Origin: an uncultured beta proteobacterium
GTDB lineage: Bacteria > Pseudomonadota > Gammaproteobacteria > Burkholderiales > Nitrosomonadaceae
Direction: 5' to 3'
Assembly (NCBI GenBank): GCA_942493155.1
Contig: OW818677.1
Coordinates: 2,169,302-2,201,301 of the forward strand
Length of the DNA: 32,000 nucleotides
The notes under the pieces were generated by a model that was not told where the DNA came from, did not search any database, and saw nothing but the letters and a program-made list of their open reading frames with translations. Both the position numbers and the translations under genes were made by a program. Numbering within the stretch: the first letter of the stretch is position 1; each line of letters starts with the position of its first letter. This document shows, one piece after another, positions 8,516 through 23,895 of the stretch.

Positions 8516-9622
8516 CTAATAAATAACGACTGAGCGAATCGATTCGCCCGCTTTCATCAAACGAAAACCTTCATTAATGTCATCCAGCGATAGGGTATGG
8601 GTGATCAGTGAATCAATATCGATTTTTCCTTCCATATACCAGTCTACAATTTTAGGCACATCAGTGCGGCCTCGTGCGCCACCAAAGGCAGAACCTTCCC
8701 ACTTTCTCCCTGTAACCAACTGGAAAGGGCGAGTGCTAATTTCAGCGCCAGCTTCTGCTACGCCAATAATAATGCTGCGCCCCCAGCCTTTATGCGTGCA
8801 CTCCAGGGCTTGCCGCATGACCTTGGTATTGCCGATACACTCGAAGCTGTAATCAGCGCCTCCGTTCGTCAGTTGCACGATCGCATCTACAATATTGGGT
8901 ACATCATTGGGGTTGATGAAATGCGTCATGCCAAATTTTCTCGCCATCGCTTCTCGCTGGGGATTGATATCGATACCGATAATTTTATCCGCACCCACCA
9001 TGCGAGCACCTTGTATGACATTCAAACCGATTCCACCCAGGCCAAACACAACGACATTGCTGCCAGCTTCCACCTTGGCGGTATAGATGACTGCGCCAAT
9101 GCCGGTGGTTACTCCGCAGCCGATGTAACATACTTTATCAAAAGGAGCATCTTCACGAATCTTTGCCAATGCTATTTCAGGTACGACCGTGTAATTGGCG
9201 AAAGTGGATGTTCCCATGTAATGCAGTAATGGTTTTCCATCCAGAGAAAATCGCGATGTGTTGTCCGGCATTACGCCACGCCCCTGCGTACTGCGGATGG
9301 CTTGGCACAGGTTGGTTTTTTGCGAAAGACAAAACTTGCATTCCCGGCATTCCGGAGTGTACAAAGGAATGACATGGTCACCCTTGCGTAAGGATTTTAC
9401 ATCGGGACCGACATCAACCACCACGCCAGCGCCTTCGTGACCCAGAATGGCTGGAAACAAACCTTCCGGATCCGCACCTGAAAGTGTGTAATAGTCAGTG
9501 TGACAAATACCGGTCGCTTTGATTTCGACCAATACTTCACCAGATTTCGGACCTTCCAGATCAACGTCTTCTATTGTTAACGGTTCACCGGCCTTCCAGG
9601 CAACAGCAGCTCTTGTTTTCAT
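8516..9622 (-). CDS. frmA: S-(hydroxymethyl)glutathione dehydrogenase / class III alcohol dehydrogenase
   Basis: [21 protein letters not shown] structural-zinc cluster and GLGGIGL Rossmann motif. 368 aa. Confidence 0.92.
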
Positions 9623-10128
9623 TAGAACATTTCCTTTTTATTGTTGCATAGATGCGCAAGGAGCCCATGACTGGCTTCTTCAACCATATTCAATACCAGT
9701 TCGAAACCTTCGTGTCCACCAAAATAGGGGTCGGGCACCTCTGCATTGGAATTGGCGCTTTTGCTATATTGCATGAATAACTGAATCTTGCTCAGGTGCT
9801 GTTGAGGGCTCTTTTGTTGCAATAAACTAAGATTCTCTTTGTCCATCGCAAGAATATAGTCGAACTCTTCAAAATCGCTGGCTTGAACGGCACGTGCACG
9901 CAAATCGTGCATTTGATAACCACGTTTCAAAGCAGTGTGCTGGGCGCGTTGATCCGGCGGATTGCCAATGTGATAAGCATGAGTGCCCGCAGAATCAACT
10001 TCAATCATATGATCAACCCCCGATTCTTTCACAAAATGTCTGAATACAGCATCGGCTGTGGGTGATCGGCAGATATTGCCCATGCAGACAAATAAAACTT
10101 TGGTTTTTTTAAGTGCTTCAGATTTCAT
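9622..10128 (-). CDS. Low-molecular-weight protein tyrosine phosphatase
   Basis: [14 protein letters not shown]-loop (CX5RS), then DSAGT and DPYFG. Confidence 0.85.
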
Positions 10129-10439
10129 ATGAATTTTCTAAAAATGATAGGGATTGTTTCTTAGGAAACTGCCATGGATTTGAATTTGATTACTATATAT
10201 TTCGCACGATAGAGATTATCACGAAGATCGTTAAAATAGAATTCGGTTATGTGTGCAATTAATACATCCATCTATTTTTATAATCATGATTTATATCATT
10301 ATTGTTGACTCAGATATATTGAATCTTTTAAAAAAACATCCGTAATATGAAACATAAGAATTTCAGATTACGAAATTATTTTCTACGATGATAAACGATA
10401 GATCAATTTCTCTGCTTAAAGCCAGAAGGGTTATACGAT

Positions 10440-10697
10440 ATGTCACTAAAAAATTCAATTAAGGAATTTAAAGCACTATTGGGTGATGAGGAATCACTGC
10501 TTGATATTAATTATCCCAAGATCTCCGAAATGATTAAATTGCATTGGGGCTATAAAGAAATTTATCTATACATCAATAAGCTACTTGTTGTTGATAAAGA
10601 TCGCAGCAGACAAGGGTTTCCTATCGAGGTTATAAAAGAAATCTACCTCTTGCAAGAAATACATGAAAAGCTATTTCCTGGTTTGAAAAAAATGTAA
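10440..10697 (+). CDS. Hypothetical 85-aa protein in an AT-rich flank
   Basis: ORF only. No motif recognised. Lies in very AT-rich DNA between the chromosomal genes and the prophage breakpoint. Confidence 0.35.
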   Translation: MSLKNSIKEFKALLGDEESLLDINYPKISEMIKLHWGYKEIYLYINKLLVVDKDRSRQGFPIEVIKEIYLLQEIHEKLFPGLKKM

Positions 10698-11057
10698 TTG
10701 AGGAGGTAAGTATGGTAAAGAAAGCATTTACTCTACTCTCATAGGTCCGAATTTTCAAAGTTACAATAATTTTATTTCAAAAGCAGCTGAGGTCAATGAT
10801 TTAAAAAATCATGAGATGAAGAATTTGCATAGAAATTACAGAAGGTTATTATCCTAGCCCTGAAATAGCATGTAATGCTGCTGTGAAAGTCCATTATAAC
10901 GGCGCATATTCTGCTAACCCTGCGCCTTACAATGGACAAGATAATTATTATGATTGTCATTATAAGGATGCTAATGGTAATCCTACTTATATTTCTGGTT
11001 ATTCTCCCCGTTCGGCTGGTTGCCCTGATAACTAGAGCTTACTCAGAAATTCAGCGA

Positions 11058-11939
11058 TCAGATATGCGCTACCAAGTAAGAATTCCGGTTTGAGATGAAC
11101 TGGCAGGCGTGCGCAAACGGAATTTCTCTGGGGATGCACTTTTTTGTCACCCAAAATGCTATTTTGGCGGCAAGATTCCTCAGACAAATAAAAACCCGCA
11201 CCAAGATGAGCAGGTTCATAACCAGGAAGATACTATTAATCCATGCGGCAGACGTATCAGCGCGCTTGGCTCGAATATTGTTGAGCCGATAACCATACTT
11301 TCCTTGGCCAAACTTTCCTTCAATTGGAATGCGTTCGCGATATTCCTGCCGGCGTTGTGCTTTCAGGCGATTGATCTCATCTTTGTTTTCAGGTGTACTC
11401 TTTGGCGGACGTCCCAGTGGTTTTCCTGAGAAGCGGATGTGCTTGCGTTCCAGATAGCTGCGATTATCACGTGAACCATATAGCGTGTCGGCAATGACGA
11501 CTTCTGGATAATAGCCGTAACGCTTTTTGTAGGCTTCAACTTGCGCTTCAAGATCATGGCCTTCATGTTGCGCATCCCAGTGCAGCTTGTCGACATGCGC
11601 CAATCCTTTGTCTGTCAGACTCACGCTTATTTTGGCGCCAAATTCCACTGCCTTGCCTTGCTTTCCCCTGATAATGGGCCGAAGATACGGCTGACTGATA
11701 CTGACAATGCGATCATCACAGCGTCTGGTGTTGGTTTTGTACATTGCATAATGTTGTTGGTACAGATGGGGTAATACCCAGTAGCGGCGTAACAACCCAT
11801 TGGGTAACGGTATGGGTGTGCCAAGCGGATATTCCGTCAGCATCGCTTCAATATGATTTAAATTCCGCTGCAGGAATTGCAATTGCTGCCTGATACCGGC
11901 ACGGCGTTTTCTGTTGGATGGCCGTCTCAGCTTGACCAA
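11058..11939 (-). CDS. IS5-family transposase, DDE catalytic part (-1 frame relative to the upstream part)
   Basis: VVIADTLYGSRDN and RIPIEGKFGQGK resemble DDE_Tnp_1 motifs. It overlaps the upstream ORF by 13 nt in the -1 frame, with no obvious slippery heptamer. Confidence 0.7.
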   Translation of the reverse strand: MVKLRRPSNRKRRAGIRQQLQFLQRNLNHIEAMLTEYPLGTPIPLPNGLLRRYWVLPHLYQQHYAMYKTNTRRCDDRIVSISQPYLRPIIRGKQGKAVEFGAKISVSLTDKGLAHVDKLHWDAQHEGHDLEAQVEAYKKRYGYYPEVVIADTLYGSRDNRSYLERKHIRFSGKPLGRPPKSTPENKDEINRLKAQRRQEYRERIPIEGKFGQGKYGYRLNNIRAKRADTSAAWINSIFLVMNLLILVRVFICLRNLAAKIAFWVTKKCIPREIPFAHACQFISNRNSYLVAHI

Positions 11940-12670
11940 GCTGAGATAGCTTTTCTGGCAATCTCGCGATAAGTGCGCGGCTTCTTTCTCTGTGCCCGGT
12001 TACTTTTGGCATGCAGTTCATCAATGATACGCTCACTCAATTCACGCGCTTCGTTCAGCAGTCCAAGATCTGTCGGATAGCGTATGGCCTGTTCTGCAAC
12101 GGTGGCATCCAGTATTAATTTGCCGTGATTGCGCGGCTGCTCATCTGCCAAAGATTGCTCTGCTTCCATTGCGGTGGCCGCGCCGCTGCTACCTACCTCA
12201 CCGCTATTTGACACATCATCGTCGTTGTCATCATCACTTGCTTTGACTGACTTCTTTGTCCGCCTAGGTTCAACCGTTTCGATGATCGACTCATGAAATT
12301 CATCGAATACCGTCTGACCCATGCGCTTGCGTATCTCAACCAGTAATGATGACGCAAACGGCGCCTTCGCTTGAAAACCTTTCAGGCCAATAAAATATTG
12401 CAGGTACGGATTCTCTCGAATCTGTTCAACCGTCTCTTCATCTGAAATCGATAATTTATGTTTAATAATCACCGCTCCAATCACAATCCTGGCATCTTTG
12501 GCTGGGCGGCCCAGATTTGAACATAACGTCTTATAGTAGCTCTCGGACAACTCATCCCACGGTAGGCAATCCCTCAGTTTTACCCAGCGATTAGTGGGAT
12601 CTAGAATCATGCCGGGCGGTGTATCAAATCCTTCGAGGGGCAGTTGCTTTTGGCTGACGTAACGAATCAT
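11927..12670 (-). CDS. IS5-family transposase, N-terminal part (InsH/DUF772-like)
   Basis: NRWVKLRDCLPWDEL...GRPAKDARIVIGAVIIKHKLSISDEETVEQIRENPYLQYFIGL is an InsH-type N-terminal domain. Confidence 0.8.
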   Translation of the reverse strand: MIRYVSQKQLPLEGFDTPPGMILDPTNRWVKLRDCLPWDELSESYYKTLCSNLGRPAKDARIVIGAVIIKHKLSISDEETVEQIRENPYLQYFIGLKGFQAKAPFASSLLVEIRKRMGQTVFDEFHESIIETVEPRRTKKSVKASDDDNDDDVSNSGEVGSSGAATAMEAEQSLADEQPRNHGKLILDATVAEQAIRYPTDLGLLNEARELSERIIDELHAKSNRAQRKKPRTYREIARKAISAWSS

Positions 12671-13451
12671 AGTGCACGGTTTTTGGTGTTAATTCACATA
12701 TTTATGTGCACTATTCTACCAAAAAACAAAATATTAATAAATTCAATCAGCTAGTTATACTTTTTGAGTAAGCTCTAACTATGTATTCAATGGCACTCTA
12801 TGTGCTCTTCAAGGTAATGCTGAAAGTCGTGTTCCAACTGCCTCCGATTGGGATTCCAAGCAATCATTGCTGAATGATCAGCGCTTTGTACCTGAACTGA
12901 ATGAGAAGGGCGCGGATATTCCAACCGGCATACCCACCTTAACGCCCAACCAGAAAAAACAGCTCGGCCTTGATTCCGTACCTACCAAGGATTCAAGCGG
13001 CAATATCACAGGGCGCGAAGATACCACTACCGAAATTGAAGCCGTAGACGCTGGAACCTCTGATAATCCCGGCCGTGTCATCATCAAGGAAACTAAGACC
13101 ACGATTAAATATGACACCAACAACACGCAGATAAGCAGCACCACCAATACCAGCTACAGCTCTCAGCCACAAGAAAAAGAGCCGTCACAATTCACCATAT
13201 CATTCGACACCGTACCCGAAGCCACATTACCCAGTTACAGCGTCCCTAATACCTTCAACTCAGATAGTTGGGGTTCTGGCACTTGTCCGCCCAATATCGA
13301 CGTATCACTAACCAATCATTCTTTCACCATACCGACACAGCCAATCTGTGACACGGCGGAAATGATTAACCCATTTACGCTGTTACTGGCTTCAATCATC
13401 AGTGTCTACATTATCGCGGGGGTTCGTGGCGGCTCTGCCACGTAAAAAACT

Positions 13452-13742
13452 ATGTTCAATATCTTAATTCCTTTAGGTGCTTTTCTTTCGGCTGGTGTTG
13501 GTTTCCTTGCTGTACGTGCTTTGATGGGTGTAGGTGTCGGCTTAATCAGTTATGGCGCGGTCGGTGTTGTTCTGCAGCAGCTTCTAACCTTAGCGCAAGG
13601 CCATTACAACAACATTCCAGCATTCGCGCTGCAAATCGCCGGACTCTCAGGCATTGGCCAAGCGCTCGGCATGATCGCTGGTGCCATTACTTTCAGGGCT
13701 ACTTTTATGTTGATGTCTAAACTCGGAGTGATTCCAAAATGA
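13452..13742 (+). CDS. Inovirus g6p-like small membrane protein (DUF2523-like), unit A
   Basis: 96-aa hydrophobic protein directly upstream of zot, overlapping it by 4 nt. Differs from 22383-22673 at one residue. Confidence 0.7.
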   Translation: MFNILIPLGAFLSAGVGFLAVRALMGVGVGLISYGAVGVVLQQLLTLAQGHYNNIPAFALQIAGLSGIGQALGMIAGAITFRATFMLMSKLGVIPK

Positions 13743-14707
13743 CGATTATCGTTTTAACGGCTACGCCGGGCTGTGGCAAAACCAATCACGCGGTATGGAG
13801 CTATATTAAACCAGCGGTGGAAGCGGGGCGTGTTGTCTATGTTTGCGGTGTTCCGGATTTAAAGCTAATGCATATCAAGCTATCCATTGCCAAGCTCAAT
13901 ACCTGGGCAGAACGCACACCCCTAGACCCGGAAGAACCAGAAGGAAAGCAAAAACTAAACAACATCTTGGAAGGTAGTCTTATTGTAGTGGATGAAGCTG
14001 CTTATCCTTGGCCGGCGGTTGACCTGAAAGACCCTCCGGAATATATCAAATACTTAAGCCAGCATAGAAAGCACGGCTTAGACTTCCTTGTTATTACTCA
14101 ATCACCGAAGTTCGTGCATCCGTTTGTATTGGAAAATGCCGACCGGCATATCCATTTAAGCCAAGAGTGGTCAGGCTCAAAAAGCTACGAATGGCCGGAA
14201 TACTGCGCCAATCCAAAACTCAAGACCAACAAGCAGAATGCAGTCAAAAAGCCGTACCGGCTCGTTAAGGAAGCATTCCCGCTGTATTACTCAGCAAGTC
14301 TGCATGTGGAAAAACCGAAGCGGGCGATACCTAAAATGGTCTATGCGGCTATTTTTCTGCTCTTTGCAGTGCCAGCTATGGCCATGTTCACATATGGCCG
14401 TGTAACTGAACGCCTTGAGTCTCCAATGGCATCGACTGAAACTGAAAAAAACACAATAACGAAGCAGAGGGGTGATATACCGCCAGCAAGCTTAATACCG
14501 GTCTCTCAGCCTGTCGTAGCATTGCCGAGTACAAAAGAATCGCTCTCAATGTTATCAAATGCGGTTGACTGGTCACAAGTGGCCGCCTGTGTTGCAAATA
14601 AAACTAATTGCGTTTGTTATGGGCATCAGGCTCAACGTTTGAATATTGTTCCAGATACTTGCAATGCTGCAATAAGTTATGGGTGGATCGTTCCTAAAAA
14701 ACTTTAA
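13739..14707 (+). CDS. Zot/pI-like filamentous phage assembly ATPase, unit A
   Basis: Walker A ATPGCGKT, Walker B LIVVDEA and a central TM helix (VYAAIFLLFAVPAMAMFTY). About 26 differences in 322 aa from the unit B copy, counted by eye. Confidence 0.85.
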   Translation: MTIIVLTATPGCGKTNHAVWSYIKPAVEAGRVVYVCGVPDLKLMHIKLSIAKLNTWAERTPLDPEEPEGKQKLNNILEGSLIVVDEAAYPWPAVDLKDPPEYIKYLSQHRKHGLDFLVITQSPKFVHPFVLENADRHIHLSQEWSGSKSYEWPEYCANPKLKTNKQNAVKKPYRLVKEAFPLYYSASLHVEKPKRAIPKMVYAAIFLLFAVPAMAMFTYGRVTERLESPMASTETEKNTITKQRGDIPPASLIPVSQPVVALPSTKESLSMLSNAVDWSQVAACVANKTNCVCYGHQAQRLNIVPDTCNAAISYGWIVPKKL

Positions 14708-14790
14708 AGGAATAATAAAACATACGTGAAAATTATGCTTTATTGAAACATGTCTTCAATCATTCCATAGCCAGAAAAAATCGAAGACAT

Positions 14791-14839
14791 GCTTATAGCT
14801 TATAGCTTATAGCTTATAGCTTATAGCTTATAGCTTATA
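14791..14839. repeat. Perfect heptanucleotide tandem repeat (GCTTATA)x7
   Basis: Read directly. Seven uninterrupted copies, preceded by an imperfect hairpin (CATGTCTTC...GAAGACATG). Confidence 0.95.
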
Positions 14840-14990
14840 GTTAAATATTAAAATTTAATACGGAAAAGAATCTTATATTTTCTAAAAAACTTACTTTTTT
14901 GTATTACATATAACAAATATAGTGTAATAATAGCGGAGATCTCCTATAAATGAGTAGTGAGCTCTACTCGGTAAAAAGGTGATTGTCTTA

Positions 14991-15024
14991 AAAAGCCGTA
15001 TTGCGTAAGCATTTCGGCTTTTTT
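14991..15024 (+). terminator. Terminator-like hairpin with T-run in the unit A intergenic region
   Basis: AAAAGCCG...CGGCTTTTTT, with an inner TGC-GTAA-GCA stem. Confidence 0.5.
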
Positions 15025-15055
15025 CATTTATGATTCTTTAAGAATCCATGCAATA

Positions 15056-15089
15056 GTAGCAGCAAATATCAGGTAGCAGCAAATATCAG
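15056..15089. repeat. Perfect 17-bp tandem direct repeat (GTAGCAGCAAATATCAG x2)
   Basis: Read directly. Possibly an iteron or protein-binding site. Confidence 0.9.
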
Positions 15090-15257
15090 GAATGCGCACA
15101 CAGTTTTTTACAATAAACATAAAAATAAACTTCAGAAGATAATCTCGCCACAAATTGTTGTGAATTTCAATAAGTTTCTAGATCTTTTAAACCGTAAAAT
15201 TTTTTAGCCTGTAGCCCCAAGGGTCGCGCCGCCGACCGGCGCGAAGGGTATGCACCC

Positions 15258-15328
15258 AAAAGGGGGCATGCTGCCCGATCCCTAACGCAGTCTATCTTTA
15301 TTCTGATTTCCCCCTTATTGCTAAACAG
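15258..15328. repeat. Copy 1 of an approximately 70-bp element shared by the two cargo regions
   Basis: AAAGGGGGCATGCTGCCCGATCCCTAACGCAGTCTATCTTTATTCTGATTTCC... aligns with 25365-25432 at roughly 80 percent identity by eye. A GC-rich hairpin (TCGCGCCG-CCGAC-CGGCGCGA, 15224-15244) precedes it. Confidence 0.8.
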
Positions 15329-15386
15329 AATTTGATTTTGATTCTGTGAGGTATAATCCTGGAAACAATCTTAAGAGGATAAAATC

Positions 15387-15593
15387 ATGGAGCTTTCCGC
15401 CGTATTAACACCAGCGCCAGAAGGTGGTTATGTTGCCTTCAATCCTGAAACCGGAACGACCACGCAAGGCGACACAGTTGAAGAAGCTTTGGCTAATTTG
15501 GCTGAGGCAACAGAACTCTTCCTTGAAGAATTTCCGATGACCATATCTGCCCGCTCATTATTGACAACCTTTCAAGTTGCAGAGCATGCCTAA
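15387..15593 (+). CDS. hicB: HicB-family antitoxin (UPF0150-type, 68 aa)
   Basis: PEGGYVAFNPE..GTTTQGDTVEEALANLAEA is HicB/UPF0150-like. The adjacent hicA remnant supports the call. Confidence 0.75.
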   Translation: MELSAVLTPAPEGGYVAFNPETGTTTQGDTVEEALANLAEATELFLEEFPMTISARSLLTTFQVAEHA

Positions 15594-15808
15594 ATTGCCT
15601 GTCATCTCAGCGGCAGAAGTGATTAGGGCGTTTGAACGATTAGGTTTTACCACATAGTACGCCAGCGAGGCAGCCATATCGTTCTTCGTAGGGGTTCTTC
15701 TGGCTGTGTTGTACCCAACATCGCGAACTGAAAACGGGAACTTTGAGCGGCGTGCTTAAGCAAGCCGGGGTATCTCCAGATGAATTCGTTAAAGCATTGC
15801 GTGCTTAA
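15586..15808 (+). pseudogene. hicA: hicA mRNA-interferase toxin gene, disrupted (one in-frame stop and at least two frame changes)
   Basis: Three frames give MPKLPVISAAEVIRAFERLGFTT*, VRQRGSHIVLRRG and HRELKTGTLSGVLKQAGVSPDEFVKALRA. Joined, they make a complete HicA. Confidence 0.8.
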
Positions 15809-15953
15809 TTTTCCTGTATTGAAAAACGTATTTATATTTTTGTTGCTCGTCTTTAATTTTTTATTTTTAGGACTTGCACAAATCTAGAGAATGCACCGCC
15901 AACGACGGAAAGATAGAAGTTGTAAATTTATGAATTTTGATTTGGGAGTCTTG

Positions 15954-17063
15954 ATGTCAAAATATGTAGAAGAACTGGAAACAGAATTAAACGATGAGCG
16001 TAATGTTGAAGATGAGGCTGCTGAAGATGAAGCGGAAACTTTTGGTCGCTATGATATCACTTCCTATGGAATAGATTTTGATGTCGCAGGTTTAGTCAGG
16101 AGAATCGAAAAAGGTTTAATTTTTATTCCACCTTTTCAGAGAAATTTCGTCTGGAAACTTCCTGAATCTTCTCGTTTAATAGAATCATTATTGTTAGGTT
16201 TACCAGTCCCAGGAATATTTTTAGCTCAAGAGGCAGATACTGGAAGAATGTTAGTTATAGATGGCCAACAAAGACTTTTATCCTTAAAATTCTTTTTTGA
16301 CGGGGTATTTAATCCTATAGAAGGCGAGAAAAGACAAAGAGTTTTTAAGCTATCGAAAGTTCAACCACAGTATGAAGGAAAGTCATATAAAGACCTTGCC
16401 CCAAATATTCAAAACGATTTAGAGAATTGCGTTATTCATGCGACTGTTGTAAAACAGGACGCTCCTGAAGATGACGACACTAGTATTTACCATATTTTTG
16501 AGCGCTTGAATTCAGGTGGAAGAAAATTATCTCAGCAAGAAATTAGAACCGCAATTTATCATGGAAATTTTATCAATAAAATTCATGATCTTAATTCTCA
16601 TAAATCATGGCGCCTTATTTATGGCCGCATCAACGATAGGATGAAGGATCAGGAGTTAATTATTCGCTTTTTTGCAATGTTAAATAACTATTCTTCATAC
16701 GAAGCTCCAATGTACGACTTTTTGAATAAATTTGCTAAGAAACATCGTAACGATAAAAATCAAATTCTAAGTGAGTACTCGGAACACTTTAAAGTTTGTT
16801 GTGATATTTTTCTAAAAGCCATTGATGGAAGACCATTTCGTCGAACCGTTGCAATTAATGTCGCATTATTCGAAGCTGCTATGGTAGCTCTTACAGAAAA
16901 AATACGCCGTGATGGCATACCAACTTCAGAAGTTGTTAGGAATAAATACAATGCTTTATTAATGGATAATGAATTTATTTCAGCTATTTCACAATCTACA
17001 GGCAATAAATCTACTGTACTCACTCGAATTGATACAGCAAAAAAAATATTCCTGAATGATTGA
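15954..17063 (+). CDS. DUF262 (ParB-like NTPase/nuclease superfamily, GmrSD N-terminal type) protein without a DUF1524 nuclease domain
   Basis: IPPFQRNFVW, VIDGQQRL and FERLNSGGRKLSQQEI are DUF262 hallmarks. ATG 15954 is preceded by GGGAG, and an upstream in-frame start at 15891 is possible. No H-x-x-P/HNH-like C-terminal motif was seen. Confidence 0.8.
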   Translation: MSKYVEELETELNDERNVEDEAAEDEAETFGRYDITSYGIDFDVAGLVRRIEKGLIFIPPFQRNFVWKLPESSRLIESLLLGLPVPGIFLAQEADTGRMLVIDGQQRLLSLKFFFDGVFNPIEGEKRQRVFKLSKVQPQYEGKSYKDLAPNIQNDLENCVIHATVVKQDAPEDDDTSIYHIFERLNSGGRKLSQQEIRTAIYHGNFINKIHDLNSHKSWRLIYGRINDRMKDQELIIRFFAMLNNYSSYEAPMYDFLNKFAKKHRNDKNQILSEYSEHFKVCCDIFLKAIDGRPFRRTVAINVALFEAAMVALTEKIRRDGIPTSEVVRNKYNALLMDNEFISAISQSTGNKSTVLTRIDTAKKIFLND

Positions 17064-17554
17064 TGAAAAACGTAAATCTTAATCAACAATATCAAAAGAT
17101 ATTGCATTTAATAAATAATACGGATAAATCTACTCATGGAGATATAGAGTTACAGGGACATTGGGGAAAGTATTTGTGCGTTCTAGTAGCAGGTTTTCTG
17201 GAGAATGCTATTATCGCCGTTTACTCAGATTTTGTTTCTGGCGCAGCATCTCCTCATGTCTCACAATTCACATTAGTAAACTTAGAAAAGATTCAAAACC
17301 CAAAGACTGAAAAATTTATACAAGTTGCTATTCAATTTAAGAAAGACTGGGGCGAGGAATTAAAAAATTATTTCATTAGTCATCCGGACAAAAAAGCAGC
17401 CATCGATTCGATTATGACTAATAGACATTTAGTTGCACATGGTAAATCAACAAGTATATCTGTACACAGAGTGAGAGAATATTTAACTCTCAGTATAGAG
17501 GTAATAGAATTTATAGAGGATATGTGTGCAAATAAAAAAAGCAAATTAAGATGA
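17063..17554 (+). CDS. HEPN-domain protein (MAE_28990-like), putative RNase effector
   Basis: Rx4H motif in TNRHLVAHG near the C-terminus. HWGKYLCVLVAGFLEN resembles the AHWEGF helix of MAE_28990-type HEPN domains. The start ATG overlaps the DUF262 stop (TGATG). Confidence 0.7.
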   Translation: MKNVNLNQQYQKILHLINNTDKSTHGDIELQGHWGKYLCVLVAGFLENAIIAVYSDFVSGAASPHVSQFTLVNLEKIQNPKTEKFIQVAIQFKKDWGEELKNYFISHPDKKAAIDSIMTNRHLVAHGKSTSISVHRVREYLTLSIEVIEFIEDMCANKKSKLR

Positions 17555-17559
17555 TTTGA

Positions 17560-17988
17560 CTAAAGAAAGCTTCTTTGTAATATCATTCCAAATCGGCTTT
17601 CAAGTACCAGCTGACGCCTATAAAAATCAGCCTTAATTTCAAGTCTATTAATTGCCTCGCTATGCTTCTCATTATCTTTTTTTAAAATTTCGATTTCACG
17701 TTTTAAACTAGAAACCTGCTGAACTTGCCAGAATAATGCCCTAATTTCATGAGGAGTTAGACCGCGCCGCCATTCGGGTATATATAATAGATTATTTCTG
17801 AAGTAGTGCCCATTCCAATCTGTACCCAATAAAGCACTCGCTTCACCTAGAATATACAATCTCAAGAGACGGGTTGCTGATTCTGAGATCTTCTTAGTTC
17901 CTTTTTTCCATTGCTTAATTGTTTTTTGACTTTCTCCTGTAATTCTTTCTATTTCTTGGCAGTCGATGTTTTTTATTAAATCTTCCAT
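17560..17988 (-). CDS. 142-aa phage regulatory protein (HTH-like N-terminus, coiled-coil C-terminus), last gene of unit A
   Basis: Gap-free paralogue of 26658-27086, with 91 of 142 residues identical by hand alignment. Shared blocks are EIERITGE, WKKGTK, RLLRL, PEWR, PHEIRALFW and KADFYRRQLVLESRFG. Confidence 0.6.
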   Translation of the reverse strand: MEDLIKNIDCQEIERITGESQKTIKQWKKGTKKISESATRLLRLYILGEASALLGTDWNGHYFRNNLLYIPEWRRGLTPHEIRALFWQVQQVSSLKREIEILKKDNEKHSEAINRLEIKADFYRRQLVLESRFGMILQRSFL

Positions 17989-18199
17989 TTTTTCTGCCTA
18001 AAGGCAACATCATTACAAAATTTTGGAAACTAATTCTGTCGAATAACGTAATGTTTAATATTGATTTTAAAGGTTTATATCACTTAATGGGTTTGGGGAT
18101 ATTCATCAAGATGTGAATATACTGGAAGAGTTGTTGAAGGGAATTTGAATCTGGGTAAAAGTTTATAAAATTTTCTGCTTTCAAAGCTGAGAATATATC

Positions 18200-18577
18200 C
18201 TATTTTACATAATACAAATTGATCTCACTCCCTTTTTCTGACATAGCAGCATGGGCAGGGGAGGAAGTCATTGAACTACCACCGAAAATTAATGCCGCCG
18301 CCGCTATAGTCGCAGCTCTAGAAAAACAACTTTTAAAAATTTTTATCTTTTCTTCGTCTTTCTCAGTAACAAGATTACTTGCAGCAATAACTTCAAGTCT
18401 ATCCGCACCAATATAGTCAGCGAGTTTTATACAAATATCTGCGGGCAAGCCTCTTCTTCCGCTTTTAACTATCCTTATATAACTATCTGGAATCCCTAGA
18501 ATTCTTGCTAATTCTATTTGCTTTCCGGCTTTTTCCTCACCCAATTCTAGGTATTTTTTCATTTCCATAGTATTCAT
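18200..18577 (-). CDS. XRE-family HTH repressor with a hydrophobic C-terminal segment
   Basis: QIELARILGIPDSYIRIVKSGRRGLP is a Cro/C1-type HTH. The gene is divergent from the replication operon. Its last nine codons lie inside the dif-like site. Confidence 0.75.
   Translation of the reverse strand: MNTMEMKKYLELGEEKAGKQIELARILGIPDSYIRIVKSGRRGLPADICIKLADYIGADRLEVIAASNLVTEKDEEKIKIFKSCFSRAATIAAAALIFGGSSMTSSPAHAAMSEKGSEINLYYVK
18202..18229 (-). other. dif-like Xer recombination site at the junction of units A and B
   Basis: The reverse complement is AGTGAGATCAA-TTTGTA-TTATGTAAAAT. Its XerD arm matches E. coli dif (TTATGTTAAAT) at 10 of 11 positions. Homology with the 27339 region stops exactly here. 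Confidence 0.65.
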
Positions 18578-18583
18578 GTCCTA

Positions 18584-18645
18584 TTGACAGTTACAAACGC
18601 AACTGATAATTTCAGTTACGTTTGTATCGGATCCATTTGTAACTG
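18584..18645 (+). promoter_or_regulatory. Divergent promoter/operator region of unit B
   Basis: TTGACA (18584-18589) and GATAAT (18605-18610). The motif CAGTTAC occurs three times: 18588 and 18613 direct, 18639 inverted. Each copy carries AAACG or CGTTT/TTTG flanks. Confidence 0.55.
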
Positions 18646-18697
18646 CATTTGTTCGCATATTACGGCTCAGATTTCCATAAGTCAAGGAAGGGTATTC

Positions 18698-18985
18698 ATG
18701 AGAAACATTAAAAATAGTTATTTTCGAGCAATTCATGAAGTAACTTGCAACGGTAAATTACCGGAGTATTCCGATTTGTGGCGCTGCTACCATCCTACTG
18801 CTTTGATGCTGGATAGCGATTATTGCCTATTTGCAGATTCAAGCCGGTTTTCGACGACGACGCAGGAGGAGGAGATAACCGGCAGCGCACCTAAAAAAAT
18901 ACTTTACGTCCCAGTTACACGTAAAGTTAGTCTCACAGATGAGACAAAAGAGCAAAAATTGAACGCTGGAATGATTCAAAGATGA
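18698..18985 (+). CDS. Hypothetical 95-aa phage protein upstream of Rep
   Basis: ATG preceded by AAGGAAG. Its stop overlaps the Rep start (ATGA). Confidence 0.5.
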   Translation: MRNIKNSYFRAIHEVTCNGKLPEYSDLWRCYHPTALMLDSDYCLFADSSRFSTTTQEEEITGSAPKKILYVPVTRKVSLTDETKEQKLNAGMIQR

Positions 18986-19992
18986 TGAATTTAATTCCTG
19001 TCTTTGTCGACTATTTAACTATCCGACAAGTGCATGACGGCGGCAAACTGCCAATCATTAATGGTGGTAGGGTGCTCAGAATTGATTCGGATGGCGAGAT
19101 TGAATATACCGTGGATACTCGGCAAGGCTTGGAAGGTAGTTTTGATAGCCGGGTAGAAGTTCGCTGTGATGGTCATCAAGTGGAATTCAGTGGCAATATT
19201 TCTCGCTATGGCCGACAAGATAATCTTTTCGGTTTTACTTTCGCGGATAGTATCGAACGGATTAATGAACTGCTAAAAACTCTGGGTTTGCCGCCTTTTA
19301 CTGCTGGCAAATTATACAAATTTGCTGATTCTGGCTGGACATGGACAGGTGCCAGAGTCAGCCGGATAGACATAACCTGCAATTATGTCACCGGCTCTAT
19401 GGTCGACTCCGAAGCATTACTCCGAAATATGGCAGGTCACCATATTGGCCGCCAAAAAGGCTCCCTAGCGGTTAATGGCGCAACAGTTGAATATGGCCGG
19501 GGTTCCAAATATGTTTACGGCAAACTCTACTGTAAAACCACTGAACTAAAAAAACACCGCTCCAAAAAATCCGGTCAACACGTCACTGAGGAAGTTATCG
19601 ACTTTTGCCAATCTCTCGGAGTAATACGAGAAGAGTTTACCCTTAAATCGCGCTTTCTTCTACAAAACGGCCTGGCTTTTCTAGGCGCAATAACCGACTC
19701 ATTATTGATTGAGGTTTATATGAACAGAACACAATTACAACGACTGGAGAACGTGAAATACGAGAATTTCAGCGATTTACCAGCACACCTAAGAGCAACG
19801 TATGTCAGTTGGAAATATGGTTACCCAATCGATCTTTCACGGGCTGCATTTTATCGTCATCGTAAAGCTTTGCTTTCCTACGGTATAGATATCTCCATTC
19901 CAAACAACGTTCAAACGATGCCAATTAAAGTGAAAACTATCGAACTGGCTGCACTTACAGCGCCTGACTGGTACATCAAGAAATACGCTTAA
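18982..19992 (+). CDS. Rolling-circle replication initiation protein (filamentous phage gene II/X, Phage_CRI-like)
   Basis: Call rests on position, size (336 aa), and N-terminal DYLTIRQ and RIDITCNY blocks resembling Phage_CRI-type initiators. Not verifiable without a search. Confidence 0.6.
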   Translation: MMNLIPVFVDYLTIRQVHDGGKLPIINGGRVLRIDSDGEIEYTVDTRQGLEGSFDSRVEVRCDGHQVEFSGNISRYGRQDNLFGFTFADSIERINELLKTLGLPPFTAGKLYKFADSGWTWTGARVSRIDITCNYVTGSMVDSEALLRNMAGHHIGRQKGSLAVNGATVEYGRGSKYVYGKLYCKTTELKKHRSKKSGQHVTEEVIDFCQSLGVIREEFTLKSRFLLQNGLAFLGAITDSLLIEVYMNRTQLQRLENVKYENFSDLPAHLRATYVSWKYGYPIDLSRAAFYRHRKALLSYGIDISIPNNVQTMPIKVKTIELAALTAPDWYIKKYA

Positions 19993-20067
19993 TTTTTAGT
20001 TTTACGCTCTGAATTCATTAACTGCCGGTTCAGATAAAGCGTTAATAGGTGGTGTTAAGGGGTTGTT

Positions 20068-20364
20068 ATGTTAGAGAAAGTAAAAGTGACAGGTATCACA
20101 TTCTTCAAAGATACCATCGACGGAAAGCCAATTGATTCAGGCGCGGCATTTGTTGAAGAACATTTGAATTTCCAGACGGGCAGGTCAAAGGGCACTGCAA
20201 CACAAAAATACCCGTTAGGCGATGCAGGCAAAGCACAAGCCCTGATGCACCTGGAATTTCCTCTGATCTGTGAAGTTGAATTTGTTCGTGTAACTAATGG
20301 CAATGTTTCCAAGAATATAATCAACTCAATTAAACCGGTTTCTCAAGTTAAACCTGCCGCGTGA
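20068..20364 (+). CDS. Putative ssDNA-binding protein (gene V analogue)
   Basis: 98-aa ORF between Rep and the major coat gene. The call is by position only. Confidence 0.4.
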   Translation: MLEKVKVTGITFFKDTIDGKPIDSGAAFVEEHLNFQTGRSKGTATQKYPLGDAGKAQALMHLEFPLICEVEFVRVTNGNVSKNIINSIKPVSQVKPAA

Positions 20365-20439
20365 TTTCAGCCTATACGCTCTTAGTTGGGGCGTATGGGG
20401 TGCAATTCCGCACCATTTAAACTTAAAGGAGTATTCAAT

Positions 20440-20715
20440 ATGTTTAGCAAAATAAAAAACTGGTTAATTTCTGCAAAAGACGCTGTGATAGCGCTCGGTC
20501 GCCGTGTAGTACAAAAAACCAAACGTTATGTTGCCGCTTTCTTCCTAACCTTCGGTATCACTTTTGGTTTTCTCTCTCCGGTTCACGCTGACGTACCCGC
20601 CGGTGTAACCACTGCCATCACAACCGCCGCAACCGATGTTGCAACCGTAGGTGCCGCCGTCATTCTCGTGTTCGTCGGCATCAAAGTCTGGAAATGGATT
20701 AAAGCCGCTCTGTAA
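20440..20715 (+). CDS. Inovirus major coat protein precursor
   Basis: ATG preceded by AAAGGAG. Leader ends in VHA. The predicted mature peptide is DVPAGVTTAITTAATDVATVGAAVILVFVGIKVWKWIKAAL: acidic N-terminus, hydrophobic core and basic C-terminus. Confidence 0.8.
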   Translation: MFSKIKNWLISAKDAVIALGRRVVQKTKRYVAAFFLTFGITFGFLSPVHADVPAGVTTAITTAATDVATVGAAVILVFVGIKVWKWIKAAL

Positions 20716-20716
20716 C

Positions 20717-21013
20717 ATGGCTTATCTGTATCAGGGAAAATGTCTTGATACCGTGCAGCGGCTACATGAATCTGTGGCCGCTGCATGTCCACCCGTATCC
20801 GGCAATTACTCCCTTCAATGTACGCCAACAAGCACGCAAGTCGATATTGTCGCTGCCGACCTCACGAACTCTATCATTTATTCCAGTGTGCTTGTTCCTC
20901 CTCAAATTCCCTGTGATGTAACCCTATTGGATCAAACCGCCTTTTACTGGCAATTAGTCGGCGTTTTGGTCGCGGGTTTCGCTATCCGGGCACTGATACA
21001 GGTCTTTAAATAA
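20717..21013 (+). CDS. Putative minor virion/membrane protein (98 aa, C-terminal TM helix)
   Basis: The ATG lies 1 nt after the coat gene stop. C-terminal YWQLVGVLVAGFAIRALIQVF. Confidence 0.5.
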   Translation: MAYLYQGKCLDTVQRLHESVAAACPPVSGNYSLQCTPTSTQVDIVAADLTNSIIYSSVLVPPQIPCDVTLLDQTAFYWQLVGVLVAGFAIRALIQVFK

Positions 21014-21087
21014 TGGAACTCTGGATTGTTGACTTGGGTTATATGCTGGCTTTCTTAGGTGCGCTATGGCTTATCTTTACCGCTTAA
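21013..21087 (+). CDS. Possible 24-aa hydrophobic minor coat protein (g7p/g9p-like micro-ORF)
   Basis: TAATG overlap with the preceding stop. Product is MELWIVDLGYMLAFLGALWLIFTA. Below the ORF-track size cut-off and found by hand. Confidence 0.3.
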   Translation: MELWIVDLGYMLAFLGALWLIFTA

Positions 21088-22376
21088 TAGTTATTTTAAT
21101 CATTGCATTACCAAACCTTGTTAATGCTCAATCTGCGCCAGTCGGTGCCATCGATCTGGCCGGATGGATCAAGGGCGCTGACGGTGCTTATTCTCGGGCT
21201 TTCGCTGATGGTGCCGGATCCAGAGCAACACCAACCAATTCCACAATAAATAGCACATCTACCGCGTTGGTTCAGACATCCAAAGGCTTGCAGTCCTTCG
21301 ATATCCAAAAAATTGCTGCTGTCGATGTGAACCGGGTAGGCGCCGCGGTGGCCAATTTAGCCAAGCGGGTTGGACCAGTCGGCATGACCTTGACGGCCGC
21401 ATCACTGGTTTGTGAACTGACTACTATCTGCAATCAAGCCGGACAATGGATGCTCGGTGCCGATCCTGCTTTTGAAGGTTTTCCAACCACAACACCAAAT
21501 TATAAATGGGGTGGTTATGGTGGTTATTATCCTAGCCCTGAAATAGCATGTAATGCTGCTGTGAAAGTCCATTATAACGGCGCATATTCTGCTAACCCTG
21601 CGCCTTACAATGGACAAGATAATTATTATGATTGTCATTATAAGGATGCTAATGGTAATCCTACTTATATTTCTGGCTATTCTCCCCGTTCGGCTGGTTG
21701 CCCTGATAACTATGTATTCAATGGCACTCTATGTGCTCTTCAAGGTAATGCTGAAAGTCGTGTTCCAACTGCCTCCGATTGGGATTCCAAGCAACCATTG
21801 CTGAATGATCAACGCTTTGTACCTGAACTGAACGAGAAGGGAGCGGATATCCCGACCGGCGTTCCCACATTAACGCCCAACCAAAAAAAGCAGCTTGGCC
21901 TTGATTCTGTTCCAACCAAAGACAGCAGCGGCAACATAACAGGGCGCGAAGATACCACTACCGAAATTGAAGCCGTAGACGCGGGAACCTCTGATAATCC
22001 CGGCCGCGTCATTATTAAGGAAACCAAGACCACGATCAAATATGACACCAATAATACGCAGATAAGCAGCACCACCAATACCAGCTACAGCTCGCAGCCA
22101 CAAGAAAAAGAGCCGCCACAATATACGATTTCATTTGATAGCGTGCCAGAAGCAACGCTTCCAAGTTACAGCGTACCCAATACCTTCAGTTCAGATAGTT
22201 GGGGCTCCGGCACTTGTCCGCCCAATATCGATGTATCGCTAACCAATCATTCTTTCACCATACCGACACAGCCAGTCTGTGACACGGCGGAAATGATTAA
22301 CCCTTTCACGCTTCTTTTGGCTTCAATCATCAGCGTCTACATTATCGCGGGGGTTCGTGGCGGCTCTGCTACGTAA
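21066..22376 (+). CDS. g3p-like minor coat/adsorption protein (intact copy)
   Basis: Signal peptide (LIIALPNLVNA), Cys-containing N-terminal domain, T/S/N-rich linker and C-terminal TM anchor (LLLASIISVYIIAGV). Lies upstream of g6p and zot. Confidence 0.7.
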   Translation: MAYLYRLIVILIIALPNLVNAQSAPVGAIDLAGWIKGADGAYSRAFADGAGSRATPTNSTINSTSTALVQTSKGLQSFDIQKIAAVDVNRVGAAVANLAKRVGPVGMTLTAASLVCELTTICNQAGQWMLGADPAFEGFPTTTPNYKWGGYGGYYPSPEIACNAAVKVHYNGAYSANPAPYNGQDNYYDCHYKDANGNPTYISGYSPRSAGCPDNYVFNGTLCALQGNAESRVPTASDWDSKQPLLNDQRFVPELNEKGADIPTGVPTLTPNQKKQLGLDSVPTKDSSGNITGREDTTTEIEAVDAGTSDNPGRVIIKETKTTIKYDTNNTQISSTTNTSYSSQPQEKEPPQYTISFDSVPEATLPSYSVPNTFSSDSWGSGTCPPNIDVSLTNHSFTIPTQPVCDTAEMINPFTLLLASIISVYIIAGVRGGSAT

Positions 22377-22382
22377 ATAACT

Positions 22383-22673
22383 ATGTTCAATATCTTAATT
22401 CCTTTAGGTGCATTTCTTTCGGCTGGTGTTGGCTTTCTAGCAATCCGTGCATTGATGGGCGTAGGTGTCGGCCTTATCAGTTATGGCGCGGTCGGTGTTG
22501 TCCTGCAGCAGCTTCTAACCTTGGCGCAAGGCCATTACAACAATATTCCAGCCTTCGCGCTGCAAATCGCCGGACTCTCTGGCATTGGCCAAGCGCTCGG
22601 CATGATCGCCGGTGCCATTACTTTCAGGGCTACTTTCATGTTGATGTCTAAACTCGGAGTGATTCCAAAATGA
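22383..22673 (+). CDS. Inovirus g6p-like small membrane protein (DUF2523-like), unit B
   Basis: 96-aa hydrophobic protein that overlaps the zot start. Confidence 0.7.
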   Translation: MFNILIPLGAFLSAGVGFLAIRALMGVGVGLISYGAVGVVLQQLLTLAQGHYNNIPAFALQIAGLSGIGQALGMIAGAITFRATFMLMSKLGVIPK

Positions 22674-23638
22674 CAATTATCGTTTTAACGGCTACGCCGG
22701 GCTGTGGCAAAACCAATCACGCGGTATGGAGGTATATAAAACCAGCGGTGGAAGTGGGGCGTGTTGTTTATGTTTGCGGTGTACCTGACTTAAAGCTCAT
22801 GCACATCAAGCTATCGATAAATAAGCTCAATACCTGGGCAGAACGCACACCCCTAGACCCGGAAGAACCGGAAGGAAAGCAAAAACTAAACAACATCTTG
22901 GAAGGTAGTCTTATTGTAGTGGATGAAGCTGCTTATCCGTGGCCGGCCGTTGACTTGAAAGACCCGCCCGAGCATATCAAATACCTAAGCCAACATAGAA
23001 AGCACGGCCTGGACTTCCTTGTTATTACTCAGTCACCGAAGTTTGTGCACCCGTTTGTACTGGAAAACGCTGATCGGCATATCCATTTAAGCCAAGAGTG
23101 GTCAGGCTCAAAAAGCTATGAATGGCCGGAGTACTGCGCCAATCCAAAGCTGAAAACCAACAAGCAGAATGCAGTCAAAAAGCCGTACCGGCTCATCAAA
23201 GAAGCATTCCCGCTGTATTACTCAGCAAGTCTGCATGTGGAAAAACCGAAGCGGGCGATACCTAAAATGGTCTATGCGGCAATTTTCCTGCTCTTTGCAG
23301 TGCCAGCTATGGCGATGTTCACTTATGGCCGTGTAACCGAGCGGCTTGAGTCTCAAATCGCATCCACAGAAACCGAAAAAAACACAATAGCGAAGCAGGG
23401 GGGTGATACGCCGTCAACAAGCGCAATACCGGTATCTCAGCCTGTCATTGCATTACCGAGTACAAAACAATCGCTCTCAATGCTTTCTGATGCGGTCGAT
23501 TGGTCGCAGGTCGCGGCCTGTGTGGAAAACAAAACCAACTGCGTTTGTTATGGGCATAAAGCGCAACGCTTATCCATTGTTCCGGAAACCTGCCAAGCGG
23601 CCGTGAAGTATGGATGGATTGATACTAAACAACTTTAA
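22670..23638 (+). CDS. Zot/pI-like filamentous phage assembly ATPase, unit B
   Basis: Walker A ATPGCGKT, Walker B LIVVDEA and a TM helix. Confidence 0.85.
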   Translation: MTIIVLTATPGCGKTNHAVWRYIKPAVEVGRVVYVCGVPDLKLMHIKLSINKLNTWAERTPLDPEEPEGKQKLNNILEGSLIVVDEAAYPWPAVDLKDPPEHIKYLSQHRKHGLDFLVITQSPKFVHPFVLENADRHIHLSQEWSGSKSYEWPEYCANPKLKTNKQNAVKKPYRLIKEAFPLYYSASLHVEKPKRAIPKMVYAAIFLLFAVPAMAMFTYGRVTERLESQIASTETEKNTIAKQGGDTPSTSAIPVSQPVIALPSTKQSLSMLSDAVDWSQVAACVENKTNCVCYGHKAQRLSIVPETCQAAVKYGWIDTKQL

Positions 23639-23648
23639 AGGAGTAATT

Positions 23649-23819: not shown

Positions 23820-23895
23820 TATCCGAAGAAGGTTCCGAGGCTTGACCGAAGGTCAAACGTAGGAATTCCGGATTCAGCGTCAACGGGTTACAACT

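Follow-up and report, generated by a model that had tools for sequence, protein, structure and literature searches.

A probable hypervariable defence-cargo region between zot and a XafT-like gene in a dif-integrated array of Nitrosomonas filamentous prophages

The 32,000-nt stretch analysed here (G000:C1:2169302-2201301 of a 3.12-Mb single-contig Nitrosomonas genome), hereafter the window, carries a tandem array of two filamentous (Inovirus-type) prophages, units A and B, at the chromosomal dif site. Both are XerC/XerD-inserted, and dif-inserting elements of this type are known as integrative mobile elements exploiting Xer (IMEX). In each unit, an AT-rich interval that we call the slot lies between zot, which encodes the pI-like assembly ATPase, and a gene for a 142-aa XafT-like protein (xafT for short). 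We conclude with high confidence that this slot is a phage-encoded hypervariable defence-cargo region of a dif-integrated inovirus array. The layout of the array, its location at dif, the turnover among relatives and the protein-family matches were all observed directly and are presented below.

Relatives were gathered with Zot and the 142-aa protein as anchors, their flanks were fetched, and their backbone genes were mapped. This gave 19 non-identical zot-to-xafT intervals, all from Nitrosomonas genomes and 274 to 4969 bp long (four short ones of 274-601 bp, the remaining fifteen of 579-4969 bp), with a GC content of 0.32-0.39, as compared to ~0.48 in the backbone. An all-against-all comparison of the open reading frames (ORFs) in the 19 slots found only five small protein families common to any two of them, and among the mapped relatives no turnover comparable to that of the zot-xafT interval occurs between other backbone genes. 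An earlier reading of the window from its sequence alone (the sequence-only reading) had proposed a variable cargo hotspot between conserved flanks. The comparison bears this out, with gene content that is not fixed across the 19 intervals, almost no families in common, and recognised defence systems in several slots. The same reading was aware of no defined hotspot in chromosomally integrated inoviruses of this type; one has been published at the same position for Vibrio, in the form of the phage-encoded hypervariable regions (pHVRs) of CTX-I inoviruses (PMC12715192, Commun Biol 2025) and the accessory hotspot of PMC11630473 (ISME J 2024). Nitrosomonas itself has been among the new inovirus hosts since 2019 (PMC6813254).

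Defence-system prediction on the slots recovered a retron, PARIS, an OLD-like nuclease, PDC-S20, and a PD-T4-2-like pair; clear PADLOC matches occur in five of the 19 slots, with a weaker, PDC-M28-like match in L049. Slot L001 encodes a RES toxin, HicAB, and PDC-S20 (3.5e-142), L044 a type II-A retron (nucleoside 2-deoxyribosyltransferase, NDT, 1.6e-82; reverse transcriptase 1.2e-115), L046 a PARIS system (AriA, apparently broken by an ORF resembling an insertion sequence (IS), plus AriB), L055 an OLD/AriA-like nuclease (~6e-50) plus an aspartyl protease, and L049 a 907-aa protein that matches PDC-M28B and PDC-M28C. Cargo elsewhere includes an SDH-type ClpP-like protease (L047), DUF4747 (L052), DUF5677 (L094), a Swt1-type HEPN / PDC-M34B protein (L096), DUF2726 (L091), and Abi_alpha (L088). 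Cargo slots gather IS elements too: in the L046 slot (10262-15230), a second, IS110-like ORF follows ariB (IS families read from sequence).

Unit A and two near relatives, L001 and L094 (a metagenomic viral contig), have 84-93% nucleotide identity in zot, in a block formed by a structured element (described below) and hicBA, and in xafT. What lies around these blocks differs: 3' of hicA there is a PD-T4-2-like pair in unit A, PDC-S20 in L001, and DUF5677 in L094, and 5' of the element there are repeats in unit A and the RES-toxin gene in L001. Homology between close relatives stops at the zot 3' end, at the element 5' edge, after hicA, and at the xafT 3' end, and the cargo between the conserved blocks is AT-rich and foreign-looking. 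From this pattern, we favour homologous exchange between co-resident phages. The interval from zot, the last morphogenesis gene, to the convergent XafT-like gene beside the attachment site would serve as a phage-encoded hypervariable cargo bay. Its conserved flanks (the end of zot, xafT together with attP and, in slots that have it, the structured element of ~110 bp) would allow homologous recombination between co-resident or co-infecting relatives to swap the AT-rich genes between them, and tandem heterogeneous arrays such as this one set two diverged copies side by side. The cargo, which would consist mostly of self-contained conflict modules (abortive-infection and nuclease systems and toxin-antitoxin pairs), may protect the lysogen, and hence the prophage, from other phages, or may stabilise the element. 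We infer both the recombination mechanism and the defence activity from sequence comparison.

Slot A had been described as holding non-coding repeats, hicB, a decayed hicA, and genes for DUF262 and HEPN proteins; profile searches, Tandem Repeats Finder (TRF), and tblastn find all of them (Table 1). The slots were also correctly described as AT-rich relative to the structural modules, with a GC content of 0.36 (slot A) and 0.34 (slot B) compared to 0.47-0.49 in the structural genes (~0.48 overall). The non-coding first sub-region of slot A has no homology to L001, which has its RES-toxin gene at that position. The hicB-like protein is 93-96% identical in amino acid sequence to copies in L001 and L012 that adjoin intact HicA. 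With the intact 73-aa HicA of L001 as tblastn query (PF07927 9.4e-18), matches in the window are split over three frames, and an intact HicA beside HicB is absent from the window. The DUF262 gene, whose stop is overlapped by 4 nt by the HEPN gene, and the HEPN gene itself make up a predicted PD-T4-2-like pair, the domain list of PD-T4-2 being DUF262 plus PF18735 (PMC10952713). Against PADLOC, the DUF262 protein matches NsnA (1.3e-75) and PD-T4-2_A (1.8e-59), and the RiboL-PSP HEPN protein matches no model. We rejected an identity with Menshen, which comprises NsnA with NsnB and NsnC (PMC12065111): no NsnB ABC-ATPase or NsnC follows the NsnA-like gene, the next gene being that of the 164-aa HEPN protein. 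Going by what is known of the families, the DUF262 ParB-like NTPase probably acts as sensor and the RiboL-PSP HEPN RNase as effector.

The genes listed earlier for slot B are all present, with the correction that the acidic micro-protein is semi-conserved rather than free cargo: related prophages carry a counterpart of the 69-aa ORF at the equivalent site (tblastn; 41% in L003, 37% in L006). For the 242-aa HEPN-like protein there are weak profile matches only (Csx1_HEPN 0.096, CARF_HEPN 0.0014), its motif having been read from sequence, and none of the other slots compared holds a relative. The 139-aa protein has no Pfam or PADLOC family, and profile scans with the same two collections gave no significant family for the membrane/polyproline operon. 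No tRNA, tmRNA, or known RNA family was found in the slots.

The two anchors differ between the units about as much as had been estimated (~26 of 322 residues for Zot, 64% identity for the 142-aa protein): the Zot proteins are 91.9% identical over 322 aa, i.e. 26 differences, and the 142-aa proteins 64.5%. The latter had been named simply a regulator. An XRE-family helix-turn-helix (HTH) is indeed present, yet a generic regulator is not what the whole protein resembles, for HTH plus DUF3653 is the architecture of XafT, the Xer recombination activation factor (PMC6744903). From its profile matches and a predicted structure, the right anchor looks XafT-like (XRE HTH, putative DUF3653, long helix). 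DUF3653 is matched at E 4.8e-4 in unit A and 0.011 in unit B, and at E <= 0.01 in 12 of 19 diverse homologues (best 1.4e-5). An AlphaFold (AF2) model built on an alignment of homologues (mean predicted local distance difference test score, pLDDT, 88.5) has four short helices at the N-terminus, a single long one at the C-terminus, and a small beta hairpin. Foldseek aligned the N-terminal ~49 aa with the XRE-family HTH of HigA, Aca11, C.Kpn2I, and HipB (root-mean-square deviation 2-3 A, probability 0.8-0.95), with weak whole-chain E-values, and a sequence search of the PDB with the family returned coiled-coil noise only. Genes for DUF3653 proteins mostly adjoin dif (PMC6744903), but the DUF3653 protein PSB15 of Xanthomonas phages binds the packaging signal instead (bioRxiv 10.1101/2024.03.19.585677), so the 142-aa protein may act either in Xer activation or in packaging-signal binding. 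Copies of it turned up in 51 of the 190 family genomes searched, including 43 of 120 in the genus Nitrosomonas. In L004 (10001-12889, = L059), the XafT-like gene is on the zot strand, inverted compared to the usual convergent layout, such that its dif-side upstream DNA faces zot, and a second partial copy lies behind it; either a local inversion or a head-to-head junction could account for this.

The layout in Table 1 is based on the ORF listing, self-comparison by BLAST, and Pfam scans. Unit B (18.2-27.3 kb) is complete, with its modules in canonical inovirus order (G2P, Coat_B, DUF2523 as the g6p-like gene, and Zot last) and no integrase gene among its genes; unit A is an older remnant, 5'-truncated and with an IS in g3p. 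In the self-comparison, 12776-14716 matches 21707-23647 (90.3% nucleotide identity) and 17563-18002 matches 26660-27100 (69.8%). Left of the IS, the g3p fragment has 99.5% identity to unit B, as compared to ~90% for the piece right of the IS and the rest of unit A, a contrast that suggests recent recombination or gene conversion, with sequence exchange between the two units. The transposase of this IS is spread over two ORFs (PF13586, PF05598), and the left and right g3p alignments to unit B overlap by 6 bp (21707-21712), which looks like a target-site duplication. Farther left, between the chromosomal phosphatase gene and unit A, the AT-rich stretch 10129-10843 (GC 0.31-0.33) contains an 85-aa ORF (10440-10697) and has a homologue in none of the fetched loci; it may be the residue of an older insertion.

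At its right end, the array is bordered by a dif site of chromosomal type that occurs once in the genome, and the cumulative GC-skew maximum (~2.13 Mb) is ~40 kb from the window. The site matches E. coli dif at 22 of 28 positions. The hybrid site at the junction of the units has the same TACAAA spacer, 10 of 11 positions of the XerD arm, and a divergent second arm, the degenerate phage-derived one, which is the XerC-side arm (TTGATCTCACT). The XafT-like gene is 213 bp from its dif-like site in unit A and 252 bp in unit B, and the repressor gene of unit B abuts the att site. The final codons and stop of that gene fall inside the hybrid site, so the C-terminus of the repressor is set by the DNA to the left of it. 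Given dif sites near the GC-skew maximum and no integrase, we regard the array as XerCD-dependent, like the arrays of V. cholerae. The intact unit B adjoins the functional dif, and the decayed unit A lies further in.

Table 1. Features of the window, with positions counted from its first nucleotide
Feature	Position	Strand	Remarks
Chromosomal genes	up to 10128		
AT-rich stretch	10129-10843		
g3p fragment, unit A remnant	10844-11034		
IS with DDE transposase	11035-12775		
g3p C-terminus, unit A	12776-13445		
g6p-like gene, unit A	13452-13742		
zot / pI-like assembly ATPase, unit A	13739-14707	+	left anchor of slot A; Pfam Zot 1.9e-17
Slot A	14708-17559		
Variable sub-region 1, slot A	14708-15216		non-coding; (GCTTATA)x7 at 14791-14840, 17-mer x2 at 15056-15090 (TRF)
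Structured element, copy A	15217-15328	+	core ~74 nt, 15217-15290; T-rich tail ending TTGCTAAAC; covariance model R1 99.6 bits
hicB-like antitoxin gene	15387-15593	+	DUF7387 1.6e-6, HicB_lk 0.015
Decayed hicA toxin gene	15577-15810	+	two frameshifts plus in-frame stops
DUF262 / ParB-like NTPase gene (DGQQR motif)	15891-17063	+	Pfam GmrSD_N 6.1e-31
RiboL-PSP HEPN gene, 164 aa	17060-17554	+	R-x4-H = RHLVAH; Pfam PF18735 1.3e-14
XafT-like 142-aa gene, unit A	17560-17988	-	right anchor of slot A; XRE HTH + putative DUF3653 + long helix
HTH repressor, first gene of unit B	18200-18577	-	125-aa HTH_3 protein
dif-like hybrid site, unit A/unit B junction	18202-18229	+	ATTTTACATAATACAAATTGATCTCACT; pattern search and direct sequence reading
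133-aa ORF, unit B	18584-18985		
G2P-type replication protein, unit B	18982-19992		
98-aa ORF, unit B	20068-20364		
Coat_B major coat protein, unit B	20386-20715		
120-aa ORF, unit B	20651-21013		
g3p-like gene, unit B	21066-22376		
g6p-like gene (DUF2523), unit B	22383-22673		
zot / pI-like ATPase, unit B	22670-23638	+	left anchor of slot B
69-aa acidic ORF	23610-23819	+	semi-conserved after zot
Slot B	23639-26657		
242-aa HEPN-like cargo gene	24122-24850	+	sub-region 1 of slot B; R-x4-H = RDLFAH
139-aa cargo gene	24917-25336	+	signal-peptide-like N-terminus, from sequence
Structured element, copy B	25327-25432	+	core 25327-25395; R1 58.6 bits; alignment
Cargo operon: 241-aa membrane protein + two polyproline micro-ORFs	25483-26477	-	sub-region 2 of slot B
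XafT-like 142-aa gene, unit B	26658-27086	-	right anchor of slot B; DUF3653 0.011
Chromosomal-type dif site, array right end	27339-27366	+	reverse complement ATTGCCGATAATTTGTATTATGTTAAAT; perfect XerD arm
Chromosomal AcrB-type pump	27802 onward		

Several observations weigh against a defence-cargo region bounded by zot and xafT, or against parts of that reading. Most cargo ORFs have no family assignment, none of the slot B proteins matches PADLOC at E <= 0.001, and the four slots of 274-601 bp are nearly empty, so cargo is optional. As to the XafT assignment, the PF12375 (DUF3653) scores of the two window proteins (20.7 and 16.4 bits) are under the curated cut-off of 22.4, and a tblastn search of 50,697 deposited phage genomes found nothing similar at E <= 1e-3. 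Homologous exchange has the position of the breakpoints as its sole basis. Lastly, the complete prophages L088 and L082 have zot, element, and cargo without a XafT-like gene, and G032, a complete Nitrosomonas genome, has eight element matches and five XafT-like genes but no Zot. Because of these XafT-less and zot-less cases, the boundaries of the module are looser than 'zot to xafT'. The G032 elements and XafT-like genes (L045, L060, L072, L073) are scattered over 1.07-2.93 Mb and not at one dif site; these copies are either zot-less relics or satellite-type elements.

The same cases favour an alternative in which element, cargo, xafT, and attP make up a separate TLC-phi-like satellite IMEX beside a phage that lacks xafT, the slot being the junction of the two. 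So do mosaic identities, with XafT-like proteins at 72-75% where Zot is only 24% (L049, L057), and the precedent of TLC-phi, a XafT-encoding satellite without morphogenesis genes (PMC6744903). However, no dif-like site separates zot from cargo in either unit, a good XerD arm with a TACAAA spacer being found only at 18202 and 27339. An arrangement of repressor, zot, pHVR, xafT, and attP within one att pair is the published CTX-I genome, and zot-less copies fit the degraded relics reported in the same work (PMC12715192). We therefore consider the two-element alternative very improbable in this array, though it may apply elsewhere, and retain the slot as a region of a single phage genome.

Within the slots, the units share one feature. 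Self-BLAST aligns 15239-15326 with 25344-25430 (83% over 88 bp, E 3.7e-18), the sole similarity there. A shared element of ~70 bp had been noted as the only sequence common to the slots, which is correct except for its extent: the match is longer (88 bp) and starts ~20 bp earlier. An alignment of 24 copies folds into a ~74-nt three-way junction with a closing helix of 3 bp and two hairpins, the first GC-rich and the second longer; 3' of the junction come a conserved single-stranded GATCCCTAAC and then a T-rich tail that often ends in TTGCTAAAC. Copy A has a DNA fold with z = -3.6 on the + strand, and hairpin 1 of copy B differs in sequence with pairing retained. With 34 copies aligned under guidance of the model, pairing holds in 95.5% of cells, compared to 37-46% for slid partners. 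Six pairs vary on both sides, five of which belong to the long hairpin, and all five measures beat 500/500 shuffles, although fitting this alignment to the model favours the model. Because of two G-U pairs that hardly vary, the fold is specific to the zot strand. Rfam has no relevant covariance match (E <= 1) over 9500-28500, and deposited phage genomes show no similarity to the element. For the Vibrio pHVRs, the parts of PMC12715192 used here mention no such structure. The element is undescribed so far, and it is the one feature for which we found no published description.

Wherever zot or a zot fragment is upstream, the element is on the zot strand, 110-1700 bp 3' of zot. It is found behind Zot proteins that are 24%, 40-55%, or 75-100% identical to those of the window, accompanies two types of replication protein that are 31-34% identical to each other, and, at 77-94% nucleotide identity across phages with Zot only 24-55% identical, is conserved above the flanking proteins. 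A survey covered 150 further family genomes, or 151 counting the window's own: 39 of 81 Nitrosomonas genomes have the element, in up to eight copies, and the 69 genomes of the other three genera gave one weak match. The element is optional, being missing from the complete slots L002, L047, L050, L052, and L055. It does not always border the variable segment: several complete slots lack it, and where present it parts the slot into two variable sub-regions (14708-15216 and 15329-17559 for unit A; 23639-25326 and 25433-26657 for unit B). Nor is it a dispersed repeat in the window's own genome, where the covariance model detects the two slot copies and no others and BLAST adds a single truncated 3' half. 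This half lies in a ~1.4-kb AT-rich islet (G000:C1:431859-433317; L115:960-2418) that is missing from relatives, adjoins tRNA-Ser(CGA) and rpoH, and has a 307-aa ORF with a weak NDT-like match (1.4e-5, below cut-off). The islet, at 432.9 kb, looks like a small relic of an element plus a defence-like gene outside the dif region. ORFs beside orphan or XafT-less element copies (L084, L085, L088) carry DUF4062, DUF4238, and Abi_alpha domains, and the element thus keeps defence-type company outside complete zot-xafT slots too.

It is conceivable that cargo is exchanged like cassettes, by a site- or structure-specific mechanism acting at the element, and not via homologous flanks. This would accord with an element that outconserves the proteins around it, with homology between relatives that begins at its 5' edge (15195 in unit A compared to L001), and with truncated copies beside single defence-like genes outside prophages, such as the NDT-like gene by tRNA-Ser. 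It accords poorly with the variable DNA on both sides of the element, with turnover also 3' of hicBA, 0.6 kb off, and with complete cargo slots that have no element (L047, L050, L052, L055). Moreover, partial copies break at differing positions, no attC-like inverted core sites can be read in the sequence, and no dedicated recombinase gene lies alongside. We give exchange at the element very little chance and prefer recombination through the conserved flanks. That the slots are unrelated junk in decaying prophages, their differences functionless and their position not preferred, has in its favour the degradation of unit A (5' truncation, IS in g3p, decayed hicA, simple repeats) and the IS elements of the L046 slot, but is barely credible. 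Many genomes have, at this one position, long uninterrupted ORFs that correspond to whole multi-gene defence systems (retron, PARIS, PD-T4-2-like pair), unit B is intact in other respects, turnover among the mapped relatives is confined to the zot-xafT interval, and that position is a hotspot in Vibrio phages (PMC12715192; PMC11630473).

As to what the element does, our best guess, a tentative one made by analogy, is that it may be a complementary-strand origin recognised by the host. We favour this because the fold is strand-specific, lies after the morphogenesis operon, is conserved beyond its neighbours across lineages of one host genus, and is dispensable. These properties recall the single-strand origin (sso) cassettes found on rolling-circle plasmids and the minus-strand origin of Ff phages, which is not essential. 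The element would resemble such origins also in being non-coding and in being shared by otherwise divergent replicons of one host group; it has no sequence similarity to them, and the likeness is one of analogy. A role at the RNA level, as 3' untranslated region, processing signal, or termination signal of the morphogenesis operon, seems somewhat unlikely. A packaging signal is distinctly unlikely, since the element is common to phages with very different morphogenesis proteins, and a recombination site is improbable given variable breakpoints and cargo turnover away from the element.

Other candidates were set aside. A plus-strand origin is unlikely for an element that accompanies such dissimilar replication proteins. 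A consensus scan for sigma-70 promoters and intrinsic terminators was not enriched over shuffles and gave nothing convincing at the element, where an apparent -35/-10 pair (TTGCTA ... TATAAT) fails on its spacing of 28 nt. For an integron attC site, there is a CCCTAAC-like motif on one side only, without a complementary R''/R' partner (RYYYAAC ... GTTRRRY). A partner site of the DUF3653 protein, as in the PS-PSB15 pairing, is weakened by the occurrence of both element without gene and gene without element. It is possible, if doubtful, that the Y-shaped ~74-nt element with its T-rich tail represents a new class of single-stranded functional element of Nitrosomonas inoviruses, most likely a complementary-strand origin (alternatively a packaging signal), which would travel with defence cargo as an exchangeable cassette and would flag relics or satellites that lack zot and might be mobilised by helper phages.

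Among filamentous phages that integrate at dif, the zot-xafT cargo bay is not specific to Vibrio, then, and is also found in ammonia-oxidising Nitrosomonas, a genus relevant to nitrification in wastewater treatment and soils. Its cargo there includes retrons, PARIS, OLD, a PD-T4-2-like pair, toxin-antitoxin modules, and many unannotated genes, and such slots may help explain the movement of phage resistance among nitrifiers. Together, the two anchors and the structured element make it easy to search this genus for new defence candidates.

Among better-known systems, the defence hotspots of P2/P4 and lambdoid prophages, reportedly described by Rousset et al. in 2022 (as cited in PMC11630473), are alike in their conserved flank genes, interchangeable defence cassettes, and AT-rich cargo. 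They differ in belonging to tailed double-stranded DNA phages or satellites with integrases of their own, whereas here the carrier is a ~9-kb single-stranded DNA phage whose genome is one-third cargo. The defence system PD-T4-2, which is said to come from Vassallo et al. in 2022, shares with the predicted unit A pair its two-gene order, a DUF262 gene (PD-T4-2_A by PADLOC) and then a PF18735 HEPN gene; the HEPN protein of the window differs in falling outside the PADLOC models, and its DUF262 partner in scoring higher against Menshen NsnA.

Closer in architecture is the CTX-phi/TLC-phi array of V. cholerae (PMC6744903), in which cargo likewise lies directly 3' of zot, XerCD acts at dif, and tandem heterogeneous arrays form; TLC-phi also encodes a DUF3653 plus HTH protein beside attP. 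The Nitrosomonas units have no toxin genes of the ctxAB kind. The attP of TLC-phi is without a proper XerD arm, whereas in our hybrid site the XerC-side arm is degenerate, and because a different arm is affected the Xer pathway may differ. Filamentous and tailless Vibrio prophages have been reported to carry "an accessory gene hot spot" with retrons, PARIS, and toxin-antitoxin and restriction-modification systems (PMC11630473). Like the Nitrosomonas slot, this is one variable locus near the prophage border, often by a transcriptional-regulator-like gene, rich in such systems and with most genes unannotated; unlike it, the Vibrio locus was studied in Vibrionaceae only and its flank genes vary by phage cluster, whereas both anchors here are defined genus-wide.

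The nearest counterpart is the pHVR of Vibrio CTX-I inoviruses (PMC12715192). The CTX-I-type architectural features are all present in our array: repressor first, a zot-ending module, a XafT-like gene before attP, dif integration, and a hypervariable slot. In those phages, too, an rstR-like repressor comes first (integrated CTX-I genomes start with rstR), followed by replication and morphogenesis genes up to zot, the variable region, xafT, and a dif-like attP, with dif integration and tandem arrays. The pHVRs between zot and xafT measure 1.9 +/- 1.3 kb, compared to 0.3-5.0 kb in Nitrosomonas, and carry PARIS, OLD, restriction-modification, CBASS (cyclic-oligonucleotide-based signalling), and Abi systems; the cargo overlaps with ours (PARIS, OLD, Abi, toxin-antitoxin), and in both cases degraded relics keep their cargo, the Vibrio relics retaining the pHVR. 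The differences are the host, a betaproteobacterial-type ammonia oxidiser and not Vibrio, a XafT-like protein without BLAST-detectable similarity to deposited phages, and the extra structured element that divides many Nitrosomonas slots in two. The arrangement itself is already known from Vibrio, and Nitrosomonas adds to it a new host clade and no new principle.

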